From the NCBI GenBank assembly GCA_963725895.1, contig CAVSAJ010000004.1, forward strand, positions 117,244 through 181,243: a DNA stretch of 64,000 nt, written 5' to 3'. Below are positions 7,068 to 54,910 of this stretch, piece by piece. A program made the translations under genes and the position numbers. The notes below the pieces were generated by a model that made no database searches, was not told the origin of the DNA, and saw only the letters and a list, made by a program, of their open reading frames with translations. How positions within the stretch are numbered: the stretch's first letter is position 1; the number at the start of each line of letters is the position of its first letter. The stretch comes from an uncultured Acidimicrobiaceae bacterium. GTDB lineage: Bacteria > Actinomycetota > Acidimicrobiia > Acidimicrobiales > RAAP-2.

Positions 7068-7204
7068 CGCACGGGATGGTGACCTCGGTTCCGAGGTGAC
7101 GGACACGGCCGACAGGCTACCCCTCCAGCCCGGAAACCAGGTCCAATTGGGTGGCAATTCAGGCACGAATGCGATCATTGCGTGACGGATTGACTGTCAG
7201 CCGC

Positions 7205-7221
7205 TATATCGATTCGATATA
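7205..7221. promoter_or_regulatory. Perfect 8-1-8 palindrome TATATCGA-T-TCGATATA, candidate PadR operator
   Basis: AT-rich perfect inverted repeat 11 bp upstream of the PadR ATG (7232), in the divergent DUF5318/PadR spacer of an otherwise ~70% GC sequence. Confidence 0.45.
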
Positions 7222-7231
7222 CTCCTTCGCG

Positions 7232-7852
7232 ATGTTGGATATGGCCATCCTGGGCCTCCTGGAGGAGGGCGACCTTCACGGCTACGAGATCCGTCGCCGC
7301 CTGCGTGAGCACCTCGGCCTCCTGGCCAACGTCTCGTTCGGCTCCATCTATCCGGCTCTCACCCGCCTGGAAAAGTCTGGTGCGGTCGTGGCCACCGAGG
7401 GTGGGCCGCCCGGAACCGTCCCGGCGGCACCCGCCCCGCCAACCGGGTCCCTCACCGGCGAATTCGCCGCTTTACGCACCCGGCGCCACTCCCCCGCCCG
7501 GGCTCGCCGCGGCCGCAAGGTCTACCGAATTACCGACGCGGGCCGGCGGCTCTTCGCCGAGCTGCTCGAGGGCGGCGGCTCCGCGGACGACGCGCGGAGC
7601 TTCGGGCTCCGCCTGGCCTTCGCCCGCCATCTGGCCCCCCAGGCTCGCCTCGCCCTGTTGGAGCGCCGCCGCGCCCAGCTCGTGCAGCGCCTCGGCGAGG
7701 TGGAGGCGGCCCGCGCCGACCTCGACGTCTACGCCCGGTCCGTGGTTCAGCACACGGCCGACGGCGTCGCCCGCGACATCAGCTGGCTCGACACCCTCAT
7801 CGCGTCCGAACGCGCCGACCTCGCCGTTGCCGGCTCCGAACCGGCGACCTGA
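7232..7852 (+). CDS. PadR-family transcriptional regulator
   Basis: [24 protein letters not shown]...[16 protein letters not shown] winged-helix signature, with a long C-terminal helical domain. Confidence 0.8.
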
Positions 7853-9027: not shown

Positions 9028-9513
9028 TCAGACGAGGATCCGCTCCGCCGGGGCGCGCACGCCGACGACCGCCAATGTCCGCCCCATGCCCAAGAACGTG
9101 CCGCAACAGATCGTCAGGTCGGCCAGCTCTTCGTCCGCGTACGCCGCGTGGAGGCGGTCCCACAGGTCGTCATCCATGGCGAGATGGTCCAGCCCGAAGC
9201 GCTCGGCGAACTCGGCGGCCAGCCGCTCGCGGTCGCTCAGGCCCGTGGCGCTGCGCCAGTCCGTCACCTCCGCGTAGAACGGCTCGCCCGCTCCGGCCGC
9301 GTCGCCGTCACGGGCGCGCGTGTCGCGACACACCGCGCAGTCGTTGATCAACGCGATGGTCCAGCGCGCGGCCTCGCGCTCGCGCACCGACAGCTGCGAG
9401 TTGGCGTACACGGCCTCGGACAGCTTTCCCATGCCTGCAGCCATCTTCGGGCGCAGCAGCGCCCAGTCGATATGCTCGCCCATCCCGCTCTCGGGTGCCG
9501 TGATCCTGGTCAT
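9028..9513 (-). CDS. Carboxymuconolactone decarboxylase (AhpD-like) family protein
   Basis: LSVREREAARWTIALINDCAVCRD carries the CxxC motif typical of the CMD/AhpD fold. Confidence 0.7.
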   Translation of the reverse strand: MTRITAPESGMGEHIDWALLRPKMAAGMGKLSEAVYANSQLSVREREAARWTIALINDCAVCRDTRARDGDAAGAGEPFYAEVTDWRSATGLSDRERLAAEFAERFGLDHLAMDDDLWDRLHAAYADEELADLTICCGTFLGMGRTLAVVGVRAPAERILV

Positions 9514-9546
9514 GCCCGCGAGGCTAGCCCCGGTACACCGGCTCGC

Positions 9547-10936
9547 TCAGCCGCGAGCCGCCCACCAGTCCTTGAGGCGGGCGGTCGCCTCCTCCTCGCC
9601 GAGGGGGCCCTCATCGAGTCGTAGCTCCATCAAGAAGGCCAAGGCCTCCCCGACCGCACGACCGGGTCCGATGCCGAGGATCCCCATGACCTGGTTCCCG
9701 TCGAGGTCCGGGCGGAGCGCGGTCGAGCTCCTCCTGTTCGCGCAGCTCGGCGATGCGAGCGTCGAGCTCGTCCATACGCCGGGCCAGTGCTCGGGCCTTG
9801 GCGACGTTGCGCGTCGTGCAGTCGCAGCGCGTCAGCTCGTTGAGCAGGTCGAGGTAGGGCCCGGCGTCGCGCACGTAGCGCCGGACGGCCTTGTCCGTCC
9901 AGCCCAGGCGGTACGTGTGGAAGCGCAGGTGGAGCTCGACCAGTCGGACCACCGTGTCGGTGTCCGCGGCGGAGTAGTGCAGCGCCTCCATCCGCGCACG
10001 GGTCATCCGGGCGCCTACCACTTCGTGGTGATGGAAGGTCACGCCGCCGTCGGTGATGGCGCGCGTGCGCGGCTTGCCGACGTCGTGGAAGAGGGCGGCC
10101 AGACGCAACAGCCGCTGAGGCGACGTCTTGTCGACGACAGCGAGGGTGTGCGCCAACACGTCCTTGTGCCGGTGGATCGGATCCTGTTCGAGCGCGAGCT
10201 CCGGCAGCTCCGGCATGAACTCCGCGGCCAGCCCCGTCCGCACGACGAACCACAGTGCCGAGGAGGGCACGTCGAGCAGCAGCATCTTGTCGAGCTCGTC
10301 GCGAATGCGCTCGGCCGAGACGATTGAGAGCCGGCCGTGCATCCGCTCCACCGCAGCGGTGAGCGCCGGATCGGGTTCCAGATCGAAGCGCGCCGCGAAA
10401 CGTGCCGCCCGGAGCATGCGGAGCGGGTCGTCGCCAAAGGAGATCTCGGGGTCGAGCGGAGTGCGCAGCCGCCCCGCGGCCAGGTCGCCAAGCCCGTCGA
10501 AGGGGTCGATGAGCTCCATGTCGGGCAAGCGGAGGGCCAGCGCGTTGATCGTGAAGTCCCGGCGCGACAGGTCGACGGTGATGTCATCGCCGAAGATCAC
10601 CTCCGGCTTGCGCGACTCGGGAACGTAGACCTCGGCCCGGTGGGTCGTGATCTCGTACACCTGACCGTCCTTGCGGCAGCCGATCGTCCCGAAGCGCTTG
10701 CCCTGGGTCCACACTTCGTCAGCCCACTCTCGTACCAGACGCTCCGTCTCGTCCGGGAGAGCGTCTGTGGTGAGGTCGAGGTCCGTTGCGCCACCCGCGA
10801 CGCCGGGAAAGAGTGCGTCACGCACGGAACCACCGACCAAGTACAGCGTCCTTCCCGCCGCCGCGAACCGGCGCGCGAGATCCTCGGTTGCGTGCACATA
10901 GGGACGGAACCGTTCGGGAACCGAGGTGGACTGCAC
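9547..10936 (-). CDS. cca: CCA tRNA nucleotidyltransferase / poly(A) polymerase family (PcnA-like) with HD domain; apparent frameshift near 9714-9722
   Basis: LYLVGGSVRDAL, RRDFTINALA and HRHKDVLAHTL...LFHDVGKP motifs. The ORF as given ends at 9611 in an Arg/Gly-rich tail. The conserved C-terminus LRPDLDGNQVMGILGIGPGRAVGEALAFLMELRLDEGPL...KDWWAARG is readable in another frame, ending at TGA 9547-9549. Confidence 0.85.
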
Positions 10937-26694: not shown

Positions 26695-26963
26695 CTTGTG
26701 AACCACAAGAGGAAAAGGTTGTGGACTCACGCGCCCTGCGTTGTGGACGTGGGCACATGTTTTCCCCATCCACCCCCACCCCGGCCGGCGAGCCTCTGTG
26801 TCTCCGCTCGAGACGCACACACCCATGGGGACAGCCGGGCCTGGTGCCAACTGGGATGCAACCATGTCCTCCACAGTCCACAGCCCTTACTACCTTTACC
26901 AACCACACATACTCTTTCCTCCACGATGAAGCACCAGGAGCCCGCCCGAAAGGACCGACATCG
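26695..26963. other. Probable oriC: DnaA-box cluster in the dnaA-dnaN spacer
   Basis: Palindrome CTTGTG-AAC-CACAAG (26695-26709). GTCCACA-core boxes lie at 26720-26728, 26742-26750 and 26874-26882, with a TCCTCCACA variant at 26867-26875. A locally AT-richer stretch spans 26885-26925. Confidence 0.6.
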
Positions 26964-28079
26964 GTGAAGTTCAGATCCGAGCGAGATGCGCTCGTCGAGA
27001 TGCTCGCCACAGCGGGACGCGCCGTCGGGGGTCGCGGAGGCTCTTCCCCGGTCCTCCAAGGTCTCTTGTTGCAGTGCGAGGGCAACAGCTTGCGGGTGAC
27101 CGGAACCGATCTGGATCTCACAATTCAGGTGACCGACGAAGTCATCGGTATCGACGACGGGAGTTGTGTCATTCCGGCGCGGCTCTCGACCGACATCGTG
27201 CGCCGTCTCGAGCCGGGAGCAGTGACGTTCGCCGACCAGGGTGACCACATCACAATTTCGGCCGCGCGCTCGAACTTCAAGTTGCAGACCTACCCGGTCG
27301 TGGAGTTCCCGCCCGTCGGCAAGACCAGCGAACCCATGACCGAATTGTCGGAAAGCGAACTCGGGGAGGCAGTGCGCCAAGTCGTGCGGGCTGCGTCGCA
27401 CGACGACGGCCGGCCGCTGCTGACCGGCGTCCTGGTGTCCCGAGTCGACGGCTCCCTTCGCATGGTCGCGACCGATTCGTACCGGATGGCCATGCGCGAC
27501 CTGCCCGGGTCCAACACCATCCCCGGCGAGGAGGACCTGCTCGTTCCGGCCCGGGCGCTCTCGGAGCTCCAACGCCTGCCGGCCAAGGAAACCGGCGGAG
27601 ACGAGCCCGGTCGGGTCGGGGTGGCGGCGAGCACGAACGAGATCACGTTTTGGCAGGGCAACGCCCAGATCAGCACGCGCCTGCTCGAGGGCCGCTATCC
27701 GGACTACAAGCAGTTGATCCCCGAGCACTACCCGAACCGTCTGCATCTGGGCAAGGAGAATTTCCTCTCGGCCCTGCGCCGCGTCCAGTTGTTGGTGCGG
27801 GACAACACGACTCCGGTTCGTCTCTCCATGCGAGGGGGTGGCGTCGATCTCACGGTGCAGAGCCAGGATGTGGGCGACGCAGCTGAAACGGTGGACGGGG
27901 ATTACAGCGGCGAGGACCTCGTCATCGCGTTCAATCCTTCGTACTTGATCGACGGCGTGGAGGCGGTGATCGGTGACGAAGTGATCGTCGAGACCGCTGA
28001 CGCGTCACGAGCGGCGACCGTGCGGGGCGCCGAGGACGACCAGTTCCGGTATCTCCTCATGCCGGTTCGGGTGTCCTGA
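26964..28079 (+). CDS. dnaN: DNA polymerase III beta sliding clamp
   Basis: GTG start gives VKFRSERDALVEMLATAGRAV...LLQCEGNSLRVTGTDLDL, 371 aa, with LLMPVRV at the C-terminus. The upstream part of ORF 26721.. lies in oriC and is not protein-like. Confidence 0.9.
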   Translation: MKFRSERDALVEMLATAGRAVGGRGGSSPVLQGLLLQCEGNSLRVTGTDLDLTIQVTDEVIGIDDGSCVIPARLSTDIVRRLEPGAVTFADQGDHITISAARSNFKLQTYPVVEFPPVGKTSEPMTELSESELGEAVRQVVRAASHDDGRPLLTGVLVSRVDGSLRMVATDSYRMAMRDLPGSNTIPGEEDLLVPARALSELQRLPAKETGGDEPGRVGVAASTNEITFWQGNAQISTRLLEGRYPDYKQLIPEHYPNRLHLGKENFLSALRRVQLLVRDNTTPVRLSMRGGGVDLTVQSQDVGDAAETVDGDYSGEDLVIAFNPSYLIDGVEAVIGDEVIVETADASRAATVRGAEDDQFRYLLMPVRVS

Positions 28080-28093
28080 ACTTCCGTGCCGCG

Positions 28094-29173
28094 GTGAGCG
28101 TCCGCCACCTGGAGCTGACCGACTTCCGTCTCTTCACGCACGCAGTCATTGAGCCCGAGCCAGAGGGTACGACGGTGATCACCGGCGCGAACGGCACCGG
28201 CAAGACGAGCGTGCTCGAGGCGCTGGCCTATCTCGGGACGCGACGCTCGTTCCGGGGCGCTCCGTCGGAGGCGTTGGTCCGTTCGGGCGCGACGAGTGCC
28301 ATCTTGCGTGCCGATCTCGATGGCCCCGACAGCCCCGTGCTCGTAGAAGCGGAGATCACGCCGGGCGGGAAGGGCCGGACCCGGGTGAACCGCAAAGCGG
28401 TCTCCGCCCGCAAGGACCTGGCCTCCGCCGCCCCGTGCACGGTGTTCTCGCCTGAGGATCTCGGGCTGATCAGCGGCGGACCCAAGGGCCGGCGAGACCT
28501 GCTCGATGACGCGCTGGCCCTGCTCGATCCCGAGGGTGCACGGGCGGCGGACGAAACAGAGAGGATCCTTCGCCAACGCGCCGCGCTGTTGCGCCAGTCG
28601 AGCGTGCGGTCGACTGCGGAGGTGACGACGACCCTCGACGTGTGGGACCAGCGCCTGGCCGACGCGGGCAAGATCCTCGTCGCCGCGCGCGAGCGGCTGG
28701 CCGTCGATCTCGACCCCTTGGTCGCCGCGGCCTACGACCACCTGGCGGGTGCGGCCGGCCGCTCGCTCGTGCGGCAGCAGTATCGCCGCAGCTGGGATGG
28801 CGACCTGCTGGCGGCGCTCGGGGCCAGCCGGCGCGACGACCTGCGGCGCGGCGTGAACACCGTCGGGCCCCATCGCGACGACCTGGTGCTGGCGATCGAG
28901 GGCCGTGAAGCACGCACCCACGCCTCCCAGGGCGAGCAGCGCTGCCTCGCCCTGGCACTGCGCCTCGGCGTGCACCAGCTCGTCCGGGCCCGGACCGCCC
29001 TGGTACCGACGCTGCTCCTCGACGACGTGTTCTCCGAGCTCGACCCCGACCGCAGCCGGGCCCTGGCCGCCGAGCTACCACCCGGCCAAGCACTCCTGAC
29101 CACCGCGGCGCCCCTGCCCGACGGGATCGCGGTGGCCCGGGTGATTCCGGTCGGCTCGCTGGCGGCGGCATGA
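28094..29173 (+). CDS. recF: DNA replication and repair protein RecF
   Basis: LELTDFRLF, Walker A GANGTGKTSVLEAL, signature SQGEQRCLALALRL, and Walker B LLLDDVFSELD. Confidence 0.9.
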   Translation: MSVRHLELTDFRLFTHAVIEPEPEGTTVITGANGTGKTSVLEALAYLGTRRSFRGAPSEALVRSGATSAILRADLDGPDSPVLVEAEITPGGKGRTRVNRKAVSARKDLASAAPCTVFSPEDLGLISGGPKGRRDLLDDALALLDPEGARAADETERILRQRAALLRQSSVRSTAEVTTTLDVWDQRLADAGKILVAARERLAVDLDPLVAAAYDHLAGAAGRSLVRQQYRRSWDGDLLAALGASRRDDLRRGVNTVGPHRDDLVLAIEGREARTHASQGEQRCLALALRLGVHQLVRARTALVPTLLLDDVFSELDPDRSRALAAELPPGQALLTTAAPLPDGIAVARVIPVGSLAAA

Positions 29174-29478
29174 CGGCCGCCGCGCGAGGCCCGCGTCACG
29201 TGGGGGAGTCCGTGCCGCGCCTCTTGAGCCGGCTCGGTGCGCCACCTTCGACGGCCACCATCGAGGCCGTCTTCAGCCAGTGGGAATCCGTGGCCGGCCC
29301 GGAGCTGGCAGCGCACGCGCGGCCGTTGCGCCTCGACGGCACGACGCTGGTGGTGGCGGTCGACCACGCGGCCTGGGGCACACGGGCGCGTATGGACGCC
29401 GCGCAGATCCTCGACCGGATCCGCACCGTGGATGGCGCGTCCGTCGAACGCGTCGAGGTGGTTGTCGAACGGCCCTAG
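29170..29478 (+). CDS. DUF721 / DciA-like protein (Rv0004 position)
   Basis: 102 aa, with its ATG overlapping the recF stop (ATGA). WESVAGPELAAHARPLRLDGTTLVVAVDHAAW resembles the DUF721 core. The recF-gyrB position is conserved. Confidence 0.7.
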   Translation: MTAAARGPRHVGESVPRLLSRLGAPPSTATIEAVFSQWESVAGPELAAHARPLRLDGTTLVVAVDHAAWGTRARMDAAQILDRIRTVDGASVERVEVVVERP

Positions 29479-29667
29479 GACCATTTCGCGCCGGTCCCGC
29501 GGACGTGCCCGTGACGAGGGTGTTCGCGGCGCCTTTTTGAGGTCGCCGTGGACCGTTCAAGAGTGCCGAATTGGCACGTCCGTCGGGTAGAATGGTTTGT
29601 CCGCATCGAAAGGCCGGAACTGCACCGTTCGGGGATTCGATTCGCACCGTGAGATCGTCGTTTTTGA

Positions 29668-31644
<1,977 letters not shown>

Positions 31645-31670
31645 GCGGCCGGACGGGAAGTAGGGAAGAC

Positions 31671-34193
31671 ATGCCACGTCAGTCGACGCGCGGCCCCGGC
31701 CGCGCCGGGGCAGGTTCGGGCGGGGGGAGCGAGACTCCGCCAGGCCCGCCAGAGGAGGGGTCGGACGGCGGAGCCGTCGAGCCGATCGAGCTGCAGGAGG
31801 AGATGGAGCGCTCCTTCCTCGAGTACTCCATGTCGGTCATCGTCGCCCGCGCGCTGCCAGACGTACGAGACGGCCTCAAGCCGGTACACCGGCGAATCCT
31901 CTACTCCATGTTCGACAACGGAGTGCGCCCCGACCGCCCGCGCAACAAGTGCGCCAAGGTCGTCGGTGAGGTCATGGGGACCTACCACCCCCATGGCGAC
32001 TCGGCGATCTACGAGGCACTGGCGCGCATGGTCCAGGAGTTCTCGTTACGCCATCCGCTGATTGACGGGCACGGGAGCTTCGGCGGCCGCGGCCCCGACG
32101 ACGGCGCGGCGGCGATGCGGTACACCGAGTGCCGCCTGGCGCCCCTCGCCCTCGAGCTCATGGCCGACATCGACGAAGAGACCGTCGACATGGTGGCCAA
32201 CTACGACGGGTCGGCCCTCGAGCCGGTGGTGCTCCCGGCTCGTTTCCCCAACTTGTTGGTGAACGGGTCGCAAGGCATCGCCGTCGGCATGGCGACCAAC
32301 GTGCCGCCGCACAACATGGGCGAGGTCATCGACGCAGCCATTCACGTGCTGCACCACCCCGAGGCGACGCCCGACGAGCTGATGGAGTTCGTCAAGGGTC
32401 CCGACTTCCCGACGGGCGCCCTCATTCTCGGCCGGCAGGGCATCCTCGACGCCTACCGGACCGGCCGGGGCTCGATCAAGATGCGTGCCGTCGCGGAGAT
32501 CGAAGAAGGCCGCGTCGGGGATCGCATCGTGGTCAGCGAGCTGCCCTACCAGACCTCGGTCGAGGTGATCGAGCAGAAGATCAGCGACCTGGTGAAGGCG
32601 GGCGAGCTGGACGGCATCAGCGGGGTGCTCAACGCGTCAGCGAACCAACAGCCACGCCTCATCATCGAGCTGAAGCGCGACGCCAACGCCAACGTGGTGC
32701 TCAACAACCTGTTCAAGCAGACGCCGATGCAGACCAGTTTCGGAGTGAACCTGCTGGCGCTGGTCGACAGCGTGCCGCGCACTCTGAACCTGGCGCAGGC
32801 CATCTCGCACTACGTCGACCACCAGATCGAGGTGATCCGGCGCCGGTCGGAGTTCAGGCTCGAGAAGGCGCGCAACCGTGCGCACATCGTCGAGGGCCTC
32901 TTGAAGGCGATCGACATGCTCGACGCGGTGATCGCCACCATCCGGGCGTCAGACGACCGCCCAGCCGCCCGCACCGCCCTGATGGCGGAGCCCTTCTCCT
33001 TCACCGAGGTGCAGGCGACCCACATCCTCGACATGACGCTGGGCCGGCTCACCCGGCTCGGGCGTTCCGAGCTCGAGGAGGAGATGGCGCAGCTGCGCGC
33101 CACCATCGCCGAGCTCGAGGCGATCCTCGCCGACGACGCCAAGCTCCGGGGCGTCATCGAGACGGAGATGACCGAGATCCGGGACAAGCACGCCAACGAG
33201 CGCCGGAGCGTCATCACGCACGACCCGGGCGAGATGGGCGTCGAGGACCTGATCGACGACGAAGAGATCGTCGTGACCCTCACCAGGGCGGGCTATATCA
33301 AGTCGGTGGCCGCCGCCGCCTTCCGCACCCAGGGGCGCGGTGGGCGCGGGGTCCAAGGCGCCCGCCTGAAAGAAGAGGACCTGGTCAGCCAGGTCGTGCA
33401 CACCACGTCGCACACTTACCTGCTGCTGTTCTCCAACCGGGGCAAGGTCTACCGGCTACGGGGGCACGAGATCCCGGTGAAGGACCGCACGGCGCGCGGC
33501 ACCGCCGCGGTCAACCTGGTCCCGCTGGCGCCGAACGAGTCGATCACCGCCATCATCGCCACCCGCGAGTTCTCGCCCGACCAGTACCTGGTCTTCGCCA
33601 CGGCCCACGGACAGGTCAAGAAGACGGCGCTGAGCGAGTACGACAAGTCGCGTCGGGAAGGATTCATCGCCATCAACCTGCGCGACGGTGACGAGCTGGT
33701 CCGTGTGGTCGCCACGTCGGGCAACGACGACCTCTTCGAAGTGACCCGCAACGGCATGACGATCCGCTTCAACGAAGAGGACGTGCGGCCCATGGGCCGC
33801 GACGCCGGTGGGGTCCGCGGCATCCGCCTACGCGCAGGCGACCTCGTGGTGTCCTGCGACGTGGCGGCGGACGACACCGACATCCTGATCGTGACCGACG
33901 CCGGCTACGGCAAGCGCACCAAGCTCGAGCGTTTCAACCGGCAGGCCCGAGGCGGACAGGGCGTGCGCGGCATCCGGCTGACCGGCGCCCGCGGCACCGT
34001 CGTCAGCGCGTTCATGGTGGCCCTGGACGAAGAGATCCTGCTCGTGTCCTCTGGCGGCGTGGTCATCCGGACTGCGGCGCGGGAGATCGCGTCGCAGGGT
34101 CGGGACGCGACGGGGGTCCGGGTCATGAACCTCGACGCCGGACAGACGGTGGCGGCGGTGGCACGGGTGGCGGCGGAGGCCGACGAGGAGTAG
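31671..34193 (+). CDS. gyrA: DNA gyrase subunit A
   Basis: [48 protein letters not shown] (QRDR), beta-pinwheel C-terminal repeats, 840 aa. Confidence 0.97.
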
Positions 34194-38900: not shown

Positions 38901-39360
38901 TTCGGCGGTCCAGGCGTCGCCCACCACGGCCAAAAGCGCTTCGACCGGTGCGCTTTCGGGAACGTCCGGCATTGTGGACGCACGGTGACGAACGTCGACG
39001 GCTCGCTCGTCACGACGCCGAATCAACTCGTGTCCAACGTTGCCGCGACCGCGCCAATTGGTGATGCGTTGATCACTGTCGGCGCGATCGTGTCAGAGCC
39101 CGGACAGACATCGCGCATCTCACAACAGCATCACAACTGCAGCACCGCGGAAATGATGCGCAAGGTTGACGAGCGAAACGCGTTTTTCAGAGTCACAACC
39201 CGCGTTCGAAATGAATGCGGATCGAATCCACGAACCTCGTACTCATGGGGACCCAGTCGCTATATGGTTGGCGTGGAGGGGGTAAGTGCAGTAGTTCCCG
39301 GAGAGTCGGGCTCCGAGCCGGCATCGCCCCCGCCAGTTGGACAATTCCTGGTGGAGGAAG

Positions 39361-40407
39361 ATGGAGGGATCTACGCCAGATCGGGTAAACCCGAACGAGA
39401 GCGCGAGCCTGGAAGATGTCTTTCGGTCGCGCAGCTTCGGGCGCCCGCCCCCTGACGCCGCAGCCGCTGTGGCTCCCCTGGCCGCGGCTGCGGTTCGTCA
39501 GGCGCGCCCGGGTTTCCTCCCGCGGAACCCCTTCATCGCGTCCGTAGCGGCCGCCGCAGCGGCCGGCTCGGTCGTCGCGGGCCTCGTGTTCGGACCCGGG
39601 CCGATCATCCAACCTCTCGTCTCTGCACAGTCTCCCGGTCCCGGCCCGAGCGACGTGCCGAACTTCACGCCCTCGCTGTCCCCGCCACAAGGTGGCGCGC
39701 CGGCGTCGCCTGGCGGGAGCGGCCTCGCCGCGGACTCGACACCGTCGTCGACGTCCGGCTCGGGTTCGTCAGCGTCGTCTGGGGCCGTCTTCGCCGTGGT
39801 ATCGGTGACGAAGCCGTCAGGCGGTTCGCCCGCGCCGGCGAGCACCGTTGCCGGCGTCGGCACCGGTGCGTCCGGAGGCGGGTCAACCACGTCCACGACG
39901 ACGCCGCCAACGACGACCACGGTGTCCAGTTCGCCACCGCAAGGGGGCGGCACCGGCACGAGCGGGGGTGGCACCGGTACGAGCGGCAGCGGGACAGGTA
40001 CAGGCGGGGGCGGCACCGGCACGAGCGGGAGTGGCACAGGTACGAGCGGGGGCGGCACCGGCACGAGCGGGGGTGGCACAGGTACGAGCGGCGGCGGCGG
40101 CACCAGCACGTCTTCGGGAGGAAGCGGCAGCGGCGGCGGTCAGGGCAACGGAAACGGCGGCGGCCAAGGCAACGGATGTGGCGGTGGTGGTGGCGGCAAC
40201 GGCGGCGGCGGATGGGGCAACGGCGGCGGCGGTAACGGCGGCGGCGGTAACGGTGGCGGCGGATGGGGCAACGGCGGCGGTGGTAACGGTGGCGGCGGCA
40301 ACGGATGGGGCAACGGCGGCGGCGGTAACGGTGGCGGCGGATGGGGCAACGGCGGCGGCAACGCCAACGGCGCCGGCGGATGGGGGGACGGCGGCCAGGG
40401 TCACTGA
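39361..40407 (+). CDS. Membrane-anchored glycine-repeat protein (unique N-terminus, 1 TM, S/T/P linker, GGGTGTSG repeats, then GNGGGG(W) repeats)
   Basis: ATG 39361 is preceded by GGAGGA 5 nt upstream. The TM is FIASVAAAAAAGSVVAGLVFG. The repeat region is open in all six frames, so the frame is chosen by continuity with the non-repetitive N-terminus. Confidence 0.55.
   Translation: MEGSTPDRVNPNESASLEDVFRSRSFGRPPPDAAAAVAPLAAAAVRQARPGFLPRNPFIASVAAAAAAGSVVAGLVFGPGPIIQPLVSAQSPGPGPSDVPNFTPSLSPPQGGAPASPGGSGLAADSTPSSTSGSGSSASSGAVFAVVSVTKPSGGSPAPASTVAGVGTGASGGGSTTSTTTPPTTTTVSSSPPQGGGTGTSGGGTGTSGSGTGTGGGGTGTSGSGTGTSGGGTGTSGGGTGTSGGGGTSTSSGGSGSGGGQGNGNGGGQGNGCGGGGGGNGGGGWGNGGGGNGGGGNGGGGWGNGGGGNGGGGNGWGNGGGGNGGGGWGNGGGNANGAGGWGDGGQGH
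39943..40395. repeat. Tandem GC-rich coding repeats (about 24-nt GGCGGCACCGGCACGAGCGGGGGT units, then 15-18-nt GGCAACGGCGGCGGCGG(A TGG) units)
   Basis: Seen directly in the nucleotide sequence. Unit variants differ mainly at third codon positions of the + frame. Confidence 0.8.
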
Positions 40408-54635: not shown

Positions 54636-54826
54636 AGGTGAGGTCGTGCCGTCATTCGACCAGGACGAATTGGAAGCGGGAAGGGAACGCGGATGGAAGC
54701 GGTCCCCGAACACCTCCCAACGGCCCTGTGTCCAGATCACCCGTTACCTGGGTTGCCGATCAGCCGTTCTCAATCTGGGATATGTCGGCCCTGACCGAGC
54801 ATGCAGGAGTGGGCGCTGCGCTCGAG

Positions 54827-54910
<84 letters not shown>

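Follow-up and report, generated by a model that had tools for sequence, protein, structure and literature searches.

In the 64-kb stretch of DNA analysed here (the window; part of contig CAVSAJ010000004.1 from an uncultured Acidimicrobiaceae bacterium, with all coordinates given as window positions), an open reading frame (ORF) on the forward strand encodes a glycine-rich protein of 348 residues, 122 of them Gly (39361..40407, + strand; ATG at 39361, TGA at 40405-40407). Comparison with related loci indicates that this ORF is a genuine gene under selection, belonging to an unannotated, lineage-specific family of soil Acidimicrobiaceae that is here referred to as type A. With confidence a little better than even, we read its product as an extracytoplasmic, disordered low-complexity stalk and tail, either anchored in the membrane or released at a conserved xSA↓Q site (the arrow marking candidate cleavage). 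The type-A protein is an undescribed member of an ordinary-looking class, the bacterial extracytoplasmic low-complexity proteins, and an exotic fold for it is unsupported. The window gene has all the features by which type A is defined, namely a short N-terminal motif, a hydrophobic segment, a Thr/Pro run, a Gly-rich tail, synteny with a two-domain dCTP deaminase gene (DCD) and a 5′ leader matched by covariance model R1. An earlier reading made from the letters of the DNA without database searches (the sequence-only reading) had recognised no enzymatic or known adhesin domain in the protein, and the lack of a known domain is borne out by searches of Pfam (E<=0.1) and NCBIfam, both of which gave zero matches.

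Selection, reading frame and family of the gene

The evidence for a real gene begins at the N-terminus. Compared with six orthologues, the first 105 codons have a dN/dS of 0.15-0.20 and differences by codon position of ~15/15/48. The start is conserved as M-(E/R/G)-G-S in nearly all orthologues, as is the Shine-Dalgarno (SD) sequence, which in the window is GGAGGA (39353-39358, 2 nt before the ATG, with the GGAGG core 3 nt before it), the good ribosome-binding site already noticed from sequence. A scan for DCD recovered 80 loci with DCD proteins 83-93% identical, all of them from soil metagenome-assembled genomes (MAGs) of Acidimicrobiaceae/Acidimicrobiales. Danish and peat soils are the source of the related MAGs. 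Gene presence in syntenic relatives, which the sequence-only reading had named as a check, was found in about 55 of the 80, where an ORF with the motif LE[DE]VFxSRxFG shares the strand of DCD and lies downstream of it; the next gene is an aldo-keto reductase in most loci, and the database homologue P0003 occupies the same position as the window gene. Purifying selection on the N-terminus, together with the conserved start, SD sequence and synteny, argues that the ORF is a real gene.

The repetitive C-terminal part requires separate support for its frame. It comprises module 1, with seven 21-bp GGGTGTS-type units and a degenerate eighth (39943..40110, + strand; TRF period 21, 7.4 copies, 78% matches); a single Cys codon, C273 (40177..40179, + strand), which splits an aromatic-free from an aromatic-containing Gly region and is conserved, within a Gly context, in the window's clade; and module 2, an NGGGG/NGGGGWG array with five Trp that ends in GGWGDGGQGH (40180..40404, + strand; TRF period 51, 3.2 copies, 84% matches, 7% indels). 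The count of about seven units made from the sequence was correct, while its description of a near-perfect tandem array does not agree with matches of just 78% and 84%. All six frames had also been reported open across the array; this is so for module 1 (39931-40110), but module 2 has four stops in frame +3 and two in frame -2. The C-terminal stop context ...[WYF]G..Q[GS]H is common to seven close relatives, with the window protein ending in ...GGQGH. Within the array, variation concentrates at third positions of the ORF's frame: these hold six of the eight variable columns among module-1 units, and all variation in the 5-codon NGGGG units of module 2 consists of GGC/GGT exchanges. The C-terminal context, the third-position variation and the stops in other frames independently support the frame of the array, contradicting the earlier view that it rested solely on continuity with the N-terminal part. 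The GC3 profile was uninformative on the ORF because Gly, Ser, Thr, Pro and Ala codons dominate.

These data also bear on the alternative that the ORF arose by chance across a simple repeat of high GC, or that the array was assembled wrongly. The six open frames of module 1 would fit such an origin, as would the absence of the exact protein from a 15-billion-protein collection and the truncated or frameshifted state of many database relatives. We nevertheless regard it as very improbable given the selection on the N-terminus, the family-wide conservation of synteny, start codon, leader and C-terminus, and the placement of array variation at third codon positions. Furthermore, an orthologue in another species has identical length and 0-2 single-nucleotide differences in three independent assemblies (one MAG and two metagenome contigs), so such arrays can assemble reproducibly. 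The variable copy number that had been anticipated is seen between species, where the array changes fast, but not among the three assemblies of this one orthologue.

In database searches the family is small, and its members are mishandled by gene callers, being often truncated or missed. When 1.84 billion representatives were searched exhaustively with HMMER, only 53 matched at E<=1e-3 and none below 1e-30; the best matches fell on the N-terminus, and many were fragments. Word-indexed homology searching, with the complete protein and with aa 1-195 as queries, yielded only P0001-P0003 amid a flood of low-complexity candidates, and a search with an N-terminal profile returned truncated or frameshifted fragments only, leaving no deep alignment for AlphaFold2. 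Frameshifted copies were observed in the MAGs as well (L037 ~9300-9720, L010 ~7100-7400, L054 8860-9765, L013, L028 and L020 6438-7944, L numbers denoting related loci), for example where (GT)n becomes HWHWHW; these are probably homopolymer or repeat errors of long-read assemblies and help explain the truncated database proteins. In three distant members (L053 at 9926, L077 at 9255, L080 at 1648) the ATG lies three codons downstream, at the Thr5/Lys5 of the window clade, an offset that points to a start-codon shift within the family; the GGAGGGATC after the window's ATG (39361-39372) would serve as SD sequence in those members. A literature search on glycine-rich proteins of Acidimicrobiia returned nothing relevant.

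Membrane segment, candidate processing site and glycine-rich tail

The N-terminus that precedes the hydrophobic segment is 57 residues long, not 55, and instead of being unique, as first thought, it is the most conserved part of the family. Its centre is the predicted cytoplasmic motif LEDVFRSRSFG (aa 17-27; 39409..39441, + strand), found as LE[DE]VFxSRxFG in 42 of 42 intact type-A members; L17, E18, F21, R24, F26 and G27 are invariant in 42 sequences. AlphaFold2 places a short helix at aa 17-22 of this motif, in a block with a predicted local distance difference test (pLDDT) score of ~70. A search of the PDB with the N-terminal profile returned only chance matches to transmembrane (TM) helices, at E>1.

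A single 21-residue hydrophobic segment, FIASVAAAAAAGSVVAGLVFG (aa 58-78; 39532..39594, + strand), follows and may be a signal anchor or a long h-region; AlphaFold2 models it as a helix at aa 57-76, and the one TM segment noted before thus stands. RNP/RNR flanks it on the N-side. There are seven Lys and Arg in aa 1-56 and one in aa 78-348, a charge imbalance that places the N-terminus inside and the repeats outside, in agreement with their proposed outward orientation. The topology predicted from sequence is therefore N-in, with one hydrophobic segment and ~270 almost uncharged residues outside the membrane.

Beyond this segment lies a candidate cleavage site for signal peptidase I, or a site-1 protease, V87-S88-A89↓Q90 (39619..39630, + strand), in which A89↓Q90 satisfies the -3/-1 rule for signal peptidase I. 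Of 44 type-A proteins, 35 have an SA dipeptide 7-14 residues past the hydrophobic segment (mostly at 9 or 11, within a range of 5-18), mostly as part of [VIL]xSA followed by Q, H, E or R. In a paralogous group that shares the N-terminal motif, here referred to as type B, SA is found within 28 residues of the hydrophobic run in 14 of 19 proteins, mostly at 7-13. The earlier description of the protein as membrane-anchored is supported by the hydrophobic segment and its N-in charge, but anchoring is insecure given that the conserved xSA↓Q could be a signal-peptidase site; the protein would either be anchored by the hydrophobic segment or released at xSA↓Q.

Release is taken further in an alternative that we consider possible though rather doubtful, in which aa 1-89 are an unusually long signal peptide whose n-region motif directs export, and signal peptidase I cuts VSA↓Q to free a soluble Gly-rich polypeptide of 259 residues. 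In its favour, some Gram-positive surface proteins have long signal peptides whose n-region carries a conserved motif (YSIRK, KxYKxGKxW), and SA is retained in type A (35 of 44) and in most type-B proteins, two groups that otherwise differ wholly outside the membrane. Pro/Gly helix breakers after the hydrophobic run are likewise compatible with cleavage, and a Peptidase_S26 gene lies near the family gene at related locus L001. However, the hydrophobic run of 21-26 residues exceeds typical cleavable h-regions, the spacer that would form the c-region is also long (9-11 residues), and the ORF has no C-terminal wall-sorting signal, LPXTG/LAXTG motifs being absent from every frame of the window.

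Returning to the stalk and tail, the outer part opens with a linker rich in Ser, Pro, Gly and Thr (aa 91-194; 39631..39942, + strand; pLDDT <55), which includes DVPNF and terminates in TTSTTTPPTTTTVSSSPP, as the sequence-only reading had described. A Thr/Pro run at least six residues long is shared by 41 of 42 family members. The Gly-rich tails of type-A proteins range from 34 to 322 residues and from 20 to 65% Gly, and their unit, length and composition differ between species, with units such as (GNGQ)n, (GSGSGL)n, (GPGASTST)n, GNGNG and GGGTGTS. In the window's clade, 2-7 GGGTGTS-like units or another 7-residue unit (2-5 in close relatives) precede the single Cys. After this Cys, proteins of the clade ending in ...QGH have 36-75 residues with 2-8 aromatics at unrelated spacings, these being Trp in the window, L004 and L005, and Tyr or Phe in L002, L003, L006 and L007. 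In all seven members the aromatics occur only after the conserved Cys and none in the Gly-rich part before it. As judged from these alignments, the tail keeps only its composition, one Cys and a few post-Cys aromatics, with no conserved register. By its sequence, a database protein, P0034 (527 aa), indicates that a Cys and Gly/Trp tail of the same kind can sit on a signalling protein: in it, a GGDEF diguanylate cyclase is combined with a TM segment, a stretch rich in Thr and Gly and, at the C-terminus, a tail reading GCNCGNGWG..GGGWGHGGGWQQGGGWGR.

The five Trp of module 2 were originally described as recurring every 15-17 residues. Their number is right, but they lie at aa 285, 302, 316, 328 and 341, that is, at spacings of 17, 14, 12 and 13. 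A GGA codon precedes every Trp, and the shared context GGA-TGG-GGC-AAC is invariant. The even spacing arises because there is one Trp per copy of a recently duplicated 51-bp unit, and relatives do not share it. The Trp regularity thus appears to be a by-product of recent DNA duplication and not a structural repeat, so that it loses its value as a structural signal.

A more specific proposal was that the glycine arrays form polyglycine-II (PGII) bundles or sandwiches. A PGII helix has three residues per turn and needs Gly on its packed face (PMC8409303, PMC9436101). In the tail, the period-3 normalised power of non-Gly residues is 0.49 in module 1 and 0.06 in module 2, lag-3 autocorrelation is -0.18 and -0.21, respectively, and the dominant periods are 7 in module 1 and 5/7/12 in module 2, which would put Asn or Thr/Ser on every face of a three-residue helix. 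A phmmer search of aa 190-348 against all PDB chains gave no match at E<=10. AlphaFold2, run as the structural check that had been proposed, returned a mean pLDDT of 49.8 for the full-length protein (alignment of 15 sequences) with the two helices at aa 17-22 and 57-76 only, and for the tail alone, where there was no informative alignment, a pLDDT of 41.8 with neither secondary structure nor packing.

It could still be argued that the post-Cys Gly/Trp module folds as a PGII bundle, or as a 'sail' like that of the PGRS domains of mycobacterial PE_PGRS proteins, with its Trp edge inserting into the membrane or wall. The tail is ~60% Gly and contains short GGX-GGX stretches, the aromatics of the ...QGH clade are confined to a stretch of 36-75 residues that follows the Cys, and Phe/Trp-rich loops line one edge of the PGII sandwich when PGRS domains are modelled with AlphaFold (PMC9436101). 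We find this improbable. In addition to the missing period-3 signal and PDB match and to pLDDT values of 42-50 without packing, an Asn every five residues would come to lie on all three helix faces, whereas packing wants inward Gly (PMC9436101, PMC8409303), and orthologues share no common register or length. Glycine richness is also not enough by itself, as a scrambled control in work on PGRS33 has shown that Gly enrichment alone is insufficient for polyproline-II (PPII) bundles (PMC13243192). The bundle or sandwich proposed from sequence is accordingly not upheld.

Putative promoter box, leader and neighbouring genes

Conservation is higher in the 200 nt ahead of the gene than in the encoded tail. 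This upstream stretch includes a putative promoter box, GCTATATGGT (39259..39268, + strand), with a -10-like TATGGT at 39263-39268. Alignments show the box almost unchanged before type-A genes. The window contains a single copy, as does essentially every related locus, each time immediately ahead of the gene. Simple consensus scans for promoters and terminators gave nothing meaningful. A further conserved block (39195-39235, + strand), ~45-60 nt upstream of the -10 box and aligned in L002-L020, has the consensus ..CGTTCGAA..AAT[TG]GC.. and is common even to distant members; it may be a binding site for a regulator.

Between box and start codon lies a conserved 5′ leader of ~86 nt (39275..39360, + strand), which is a candidate for a new cis-regulatory RNA before type-A genes. 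It contains GAGGGGG (39276-39282), a hairpin with 5′ arm CCCGGAG (39297-39303), loop AGTCGGG and 3′ arm CTCCGAG (39311-39317), then CCCCC (39327-39331) and the SD sequence. Covariance model R1 has one match in the window (82.9 bits) and one strong match in each of 56 related loci; strong matches occur only before type-A genes, and weak ones before some type-B genes. Compensatory changes were found in five of the five hairpin pairs, with 95% of cells paired, a result reached by none of 500 shuffles, and a separate alignment made with MAFFT gave 92.7% pairing. In an alternative fold from RNAalifold, the 3′ arm CUCCG is instead paired with UGGAG of the SD sequence. Rfam gave nothing at gathering score, and 39150-39400 had only chance-level matches (E 1.7 and 9.9). 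A tRNA-like appearance of the region upstream of the gene was rejected, as ARAGORN and Rfam show only a tRNA-Leu, at 54826-54910.

The window comes from near oriC in a genome of 68.6% GC, and the genes around the ORF run in the order dnaN, gyrA, an amidohydrolase, DCD and the ORF itself, followed by an aldo-keto reductase, an AMP-ligase and RNase D. With dnaN and gyrA 5-12 kb upstream of the ORF (26721-34193), the window adjoins the replication origin region. In related loci, two further genes accompany type A. Type-B genes lie just upstream of it (L020 8004-8876; L049 7999-8892; L061 8020-8943; L070 8009-8881; ~20 other loci) and encode the same N-terminal motif (LEEVFLSREFG, often twice), a TM segment, the SA↓Q site and a conserved, non-Gly C-terminus, ..LAPVxxVGNTVTxVGTTVT..LG..PVTGxLG..; a Pfam search with type B was empty, and its similarity to the leader is weak. 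In 40 of the 80 loci, a Cys-pair-repeat protein of 500-650 residues with an LAxTG sortase signal is encoded between DCD and type B/type A (L016 6038-7981; L059 6374-8017; L020 6438-7944; 37 other loci). It has 14-21 Cys in repeated VPVxxC..(13 aa)..C units and ends in LAxTG, a hydrophobic stretch and RRR. The window holds type A only, with neither type B nor the LAxTG protein. The Cys-repeat protein has a chaplin-like look that Pfam did not confirm, and a TrAA12 match to L008 is most likely a composition artefact.

An LAxTG protein in 40 of the 80 loci and a motif-sharing paralogue just upstream support a role for type A in the cell envelope. In the mechanism that we propose, the outer chain, running from the Ser/Pro/Thr spacer through the Thr/Pro run to the Gly-rich tail, would behave in the envelope as a hydrated and flexible stalk and tail, much like a polymer brush. 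The few Trp, Tyr or Phe residues and the Cys may act as weak 'stickers' for self-association or attachment to wall components, and slippage or unequal recombination would have produced about three duplications of the Trp-bearing 51-bp unit. The protein could stay anchored by its hydrophobic segment or be freed at xSA↓Q. Expression would proceed from the gene-specific promoter box through the structured leader, where a hairpin arm complementary to the SD sequence would permit translational control, and type A would, at least ancestrally, form a cluster of surface proteins together with type B and the LAxTG protein. A much bolder picture would make aa 274-348 a PGRS-like PGII 'sail' that evolved independently outside mycobacteria, with an aromatic-loop edge in the membrane or wall, and the type-A/type-B/LAxTG cluster a new surface-layer system under a new cis-regulatory leader RNA; this we hold to be a long shot.

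Several observations weigh against the brush-like stalk and tail or the leader as described. The AlphaFold2 result is weak negative evidence on the fold of the tail, low pLDDT not excluding a fold, and in the PGRS literature PPII bundles, which are sequence-dependent, are often missed (PMC13243192). That post-Cys aromatics and a C-terminal [WYF]GQGH are steadily retained is a hint that more than composition matters. The leader fold is not unusually stable relative to shuffled sequence (z = 0.85), so the leader claim draws on covariation only, and the SD-pairing alternative, whose bases are invariant and hence beyond the reach of covariation, suggests translational control. Finally, a purely structural part in the envelope does not account for the strongly conserved cytoplasmic motif, which may serve for export or targeting or may bind a partner.

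This lack of an explanation for the motif keeps alive a signalling alternative, in which the protein is a tether of the anti-sigma or regulated-intramembrane-proteolysis-substrate type: the motif would hold a regulator, cleavage at xSA↓Q and then within the membrane would release it, and the tail would sense the envelope. The motif is the most conserved element, with six invariant residues, and is shared by the paralogue, often in two copies; the juxtamembrane site is conserved, the GGDEF protein P0034 bears a similar Thr-rich and Gly/Trp/Cys tail, and the weak match P0002 has an anti-sigma-like layout. We consider this unlikely, however, as no sigma-factor gene is adjacent (the neighbours being DCD, aldo-keto reductase, AMP-ligase and RNase D), Pfam and NCBIfam show no anti-sigma domain, the conserved motif is just ~11 residues long and the tail has no evident ligand-binding fold.

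If the envelope-brush interpretation is true, type A would be an example of a function-bearing bacterial extracytoplasmic low-complexity region selected for composition and not for sequence, in an Acidimicrobiaceae soil lineage known almost only from MAGs. Its array advises caution in repeat-based structural guesses, since a striking 'periodic side chain' pattern can mark mere recent DNA duplication. The cytoplasmic motif, the juxtamembrane xSA↓Q and the covariation-supported leader offer experimental handles that would help define the family and its LAxTG and type-B neighbours. In addition, a family model would better the annotation of Acidimicrobiaceae genomes, because gene callers often truncate or miss these genes.

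Comparison with known systems

The PGRS domains of mycobacterial PE_PGRS proteins resemble the ORF product in being actinobacterial, exported, very Gly-rich with Asn/Ala partners and polymorphic by repeat expansion, and in the sparse Phe/Trp that recur in the array (PMC9436101). However, the ORF lacks a PE domain (Pfam E<=0.1), its units are of 5 and 7 residues with no period-3 signal in place of the GGA/GGN triplets of PGRS, it has no confident PGII model, and its tail follows a transmembrane segment and a Thr/Pro stalk. The genomes closest to the window are all MAGs of Acidimicrobiaceae/Acidimicrobiales and not Mycobacterium, and the host, itself an Acidimicrobiaceae member, presumably has no mycomembrane or ESX-5 context. 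The PGRS likeness noted from sequence thus does not amount to PE_PGRS membership.

With the PGII proteins (snow-flea antifreeze protein 3BOG, the phage S16 gp38 tip and the Obg N-domain) the ORF has a high Gly content in common, and like the central helices of gp38 it contains stretches in which 4-6 Gly stand in a row (PMC8409303). It differs from them in having no PDB match, Gly-X-X periodicity, conserved helix or turn lengths, or predicted fold.

Mucin-like Thr/Pro linkers and the serine-rich repeat glycoproteins of Gram-positive bacteria provide another comparison. Like them, the type-A protein has a long N-terminal export region in which a conserved motif comes ahead of the hydrophobic core, then a long, low-complexity, hydroxyl-rich exposed segment that is probably extended, and its repeat number differs from lineage to lineage. 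In contrast, it has no LPXTG/LAXTG signal, its distal part is Gly/Asn/Trp-rich instead of Ser-rich, and no accessory Sec or glycosyltransferase genes were seen adjoining it.

Single-pass anti-sigma factors with disordered extracytoplasmic tails include the RsdA type and RsiV, which is cut by signal peptidase. The ORF product is built along similar lines: a short and conserved N-terminus in the cytoplasm is followed by one TM segment and by a low-complexity outer region rich in Pro, Thr, Ala and Gly, with a possible cleavage site close to the membrane. However, the ORF has neither an adjacent sigma gene nor an anti-sigma domain, and its motif is only ~11 residues.

Eukaryotic glycine-rich and prion-like proteins, such as plant glycine-rich proteins and high-Gly-Tyr keratin-associated proteins, differ from the ORF product, which is bacterial, extracytoplasmic, attached to a membrane segment and without homology to them. 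The likeness lies in an uncharged chain of Gly, Asn, Gln and Ser with sparse aromatic 'stickers', in which composition is conserved and sequence is not (PMC8409303, PMC13243192).

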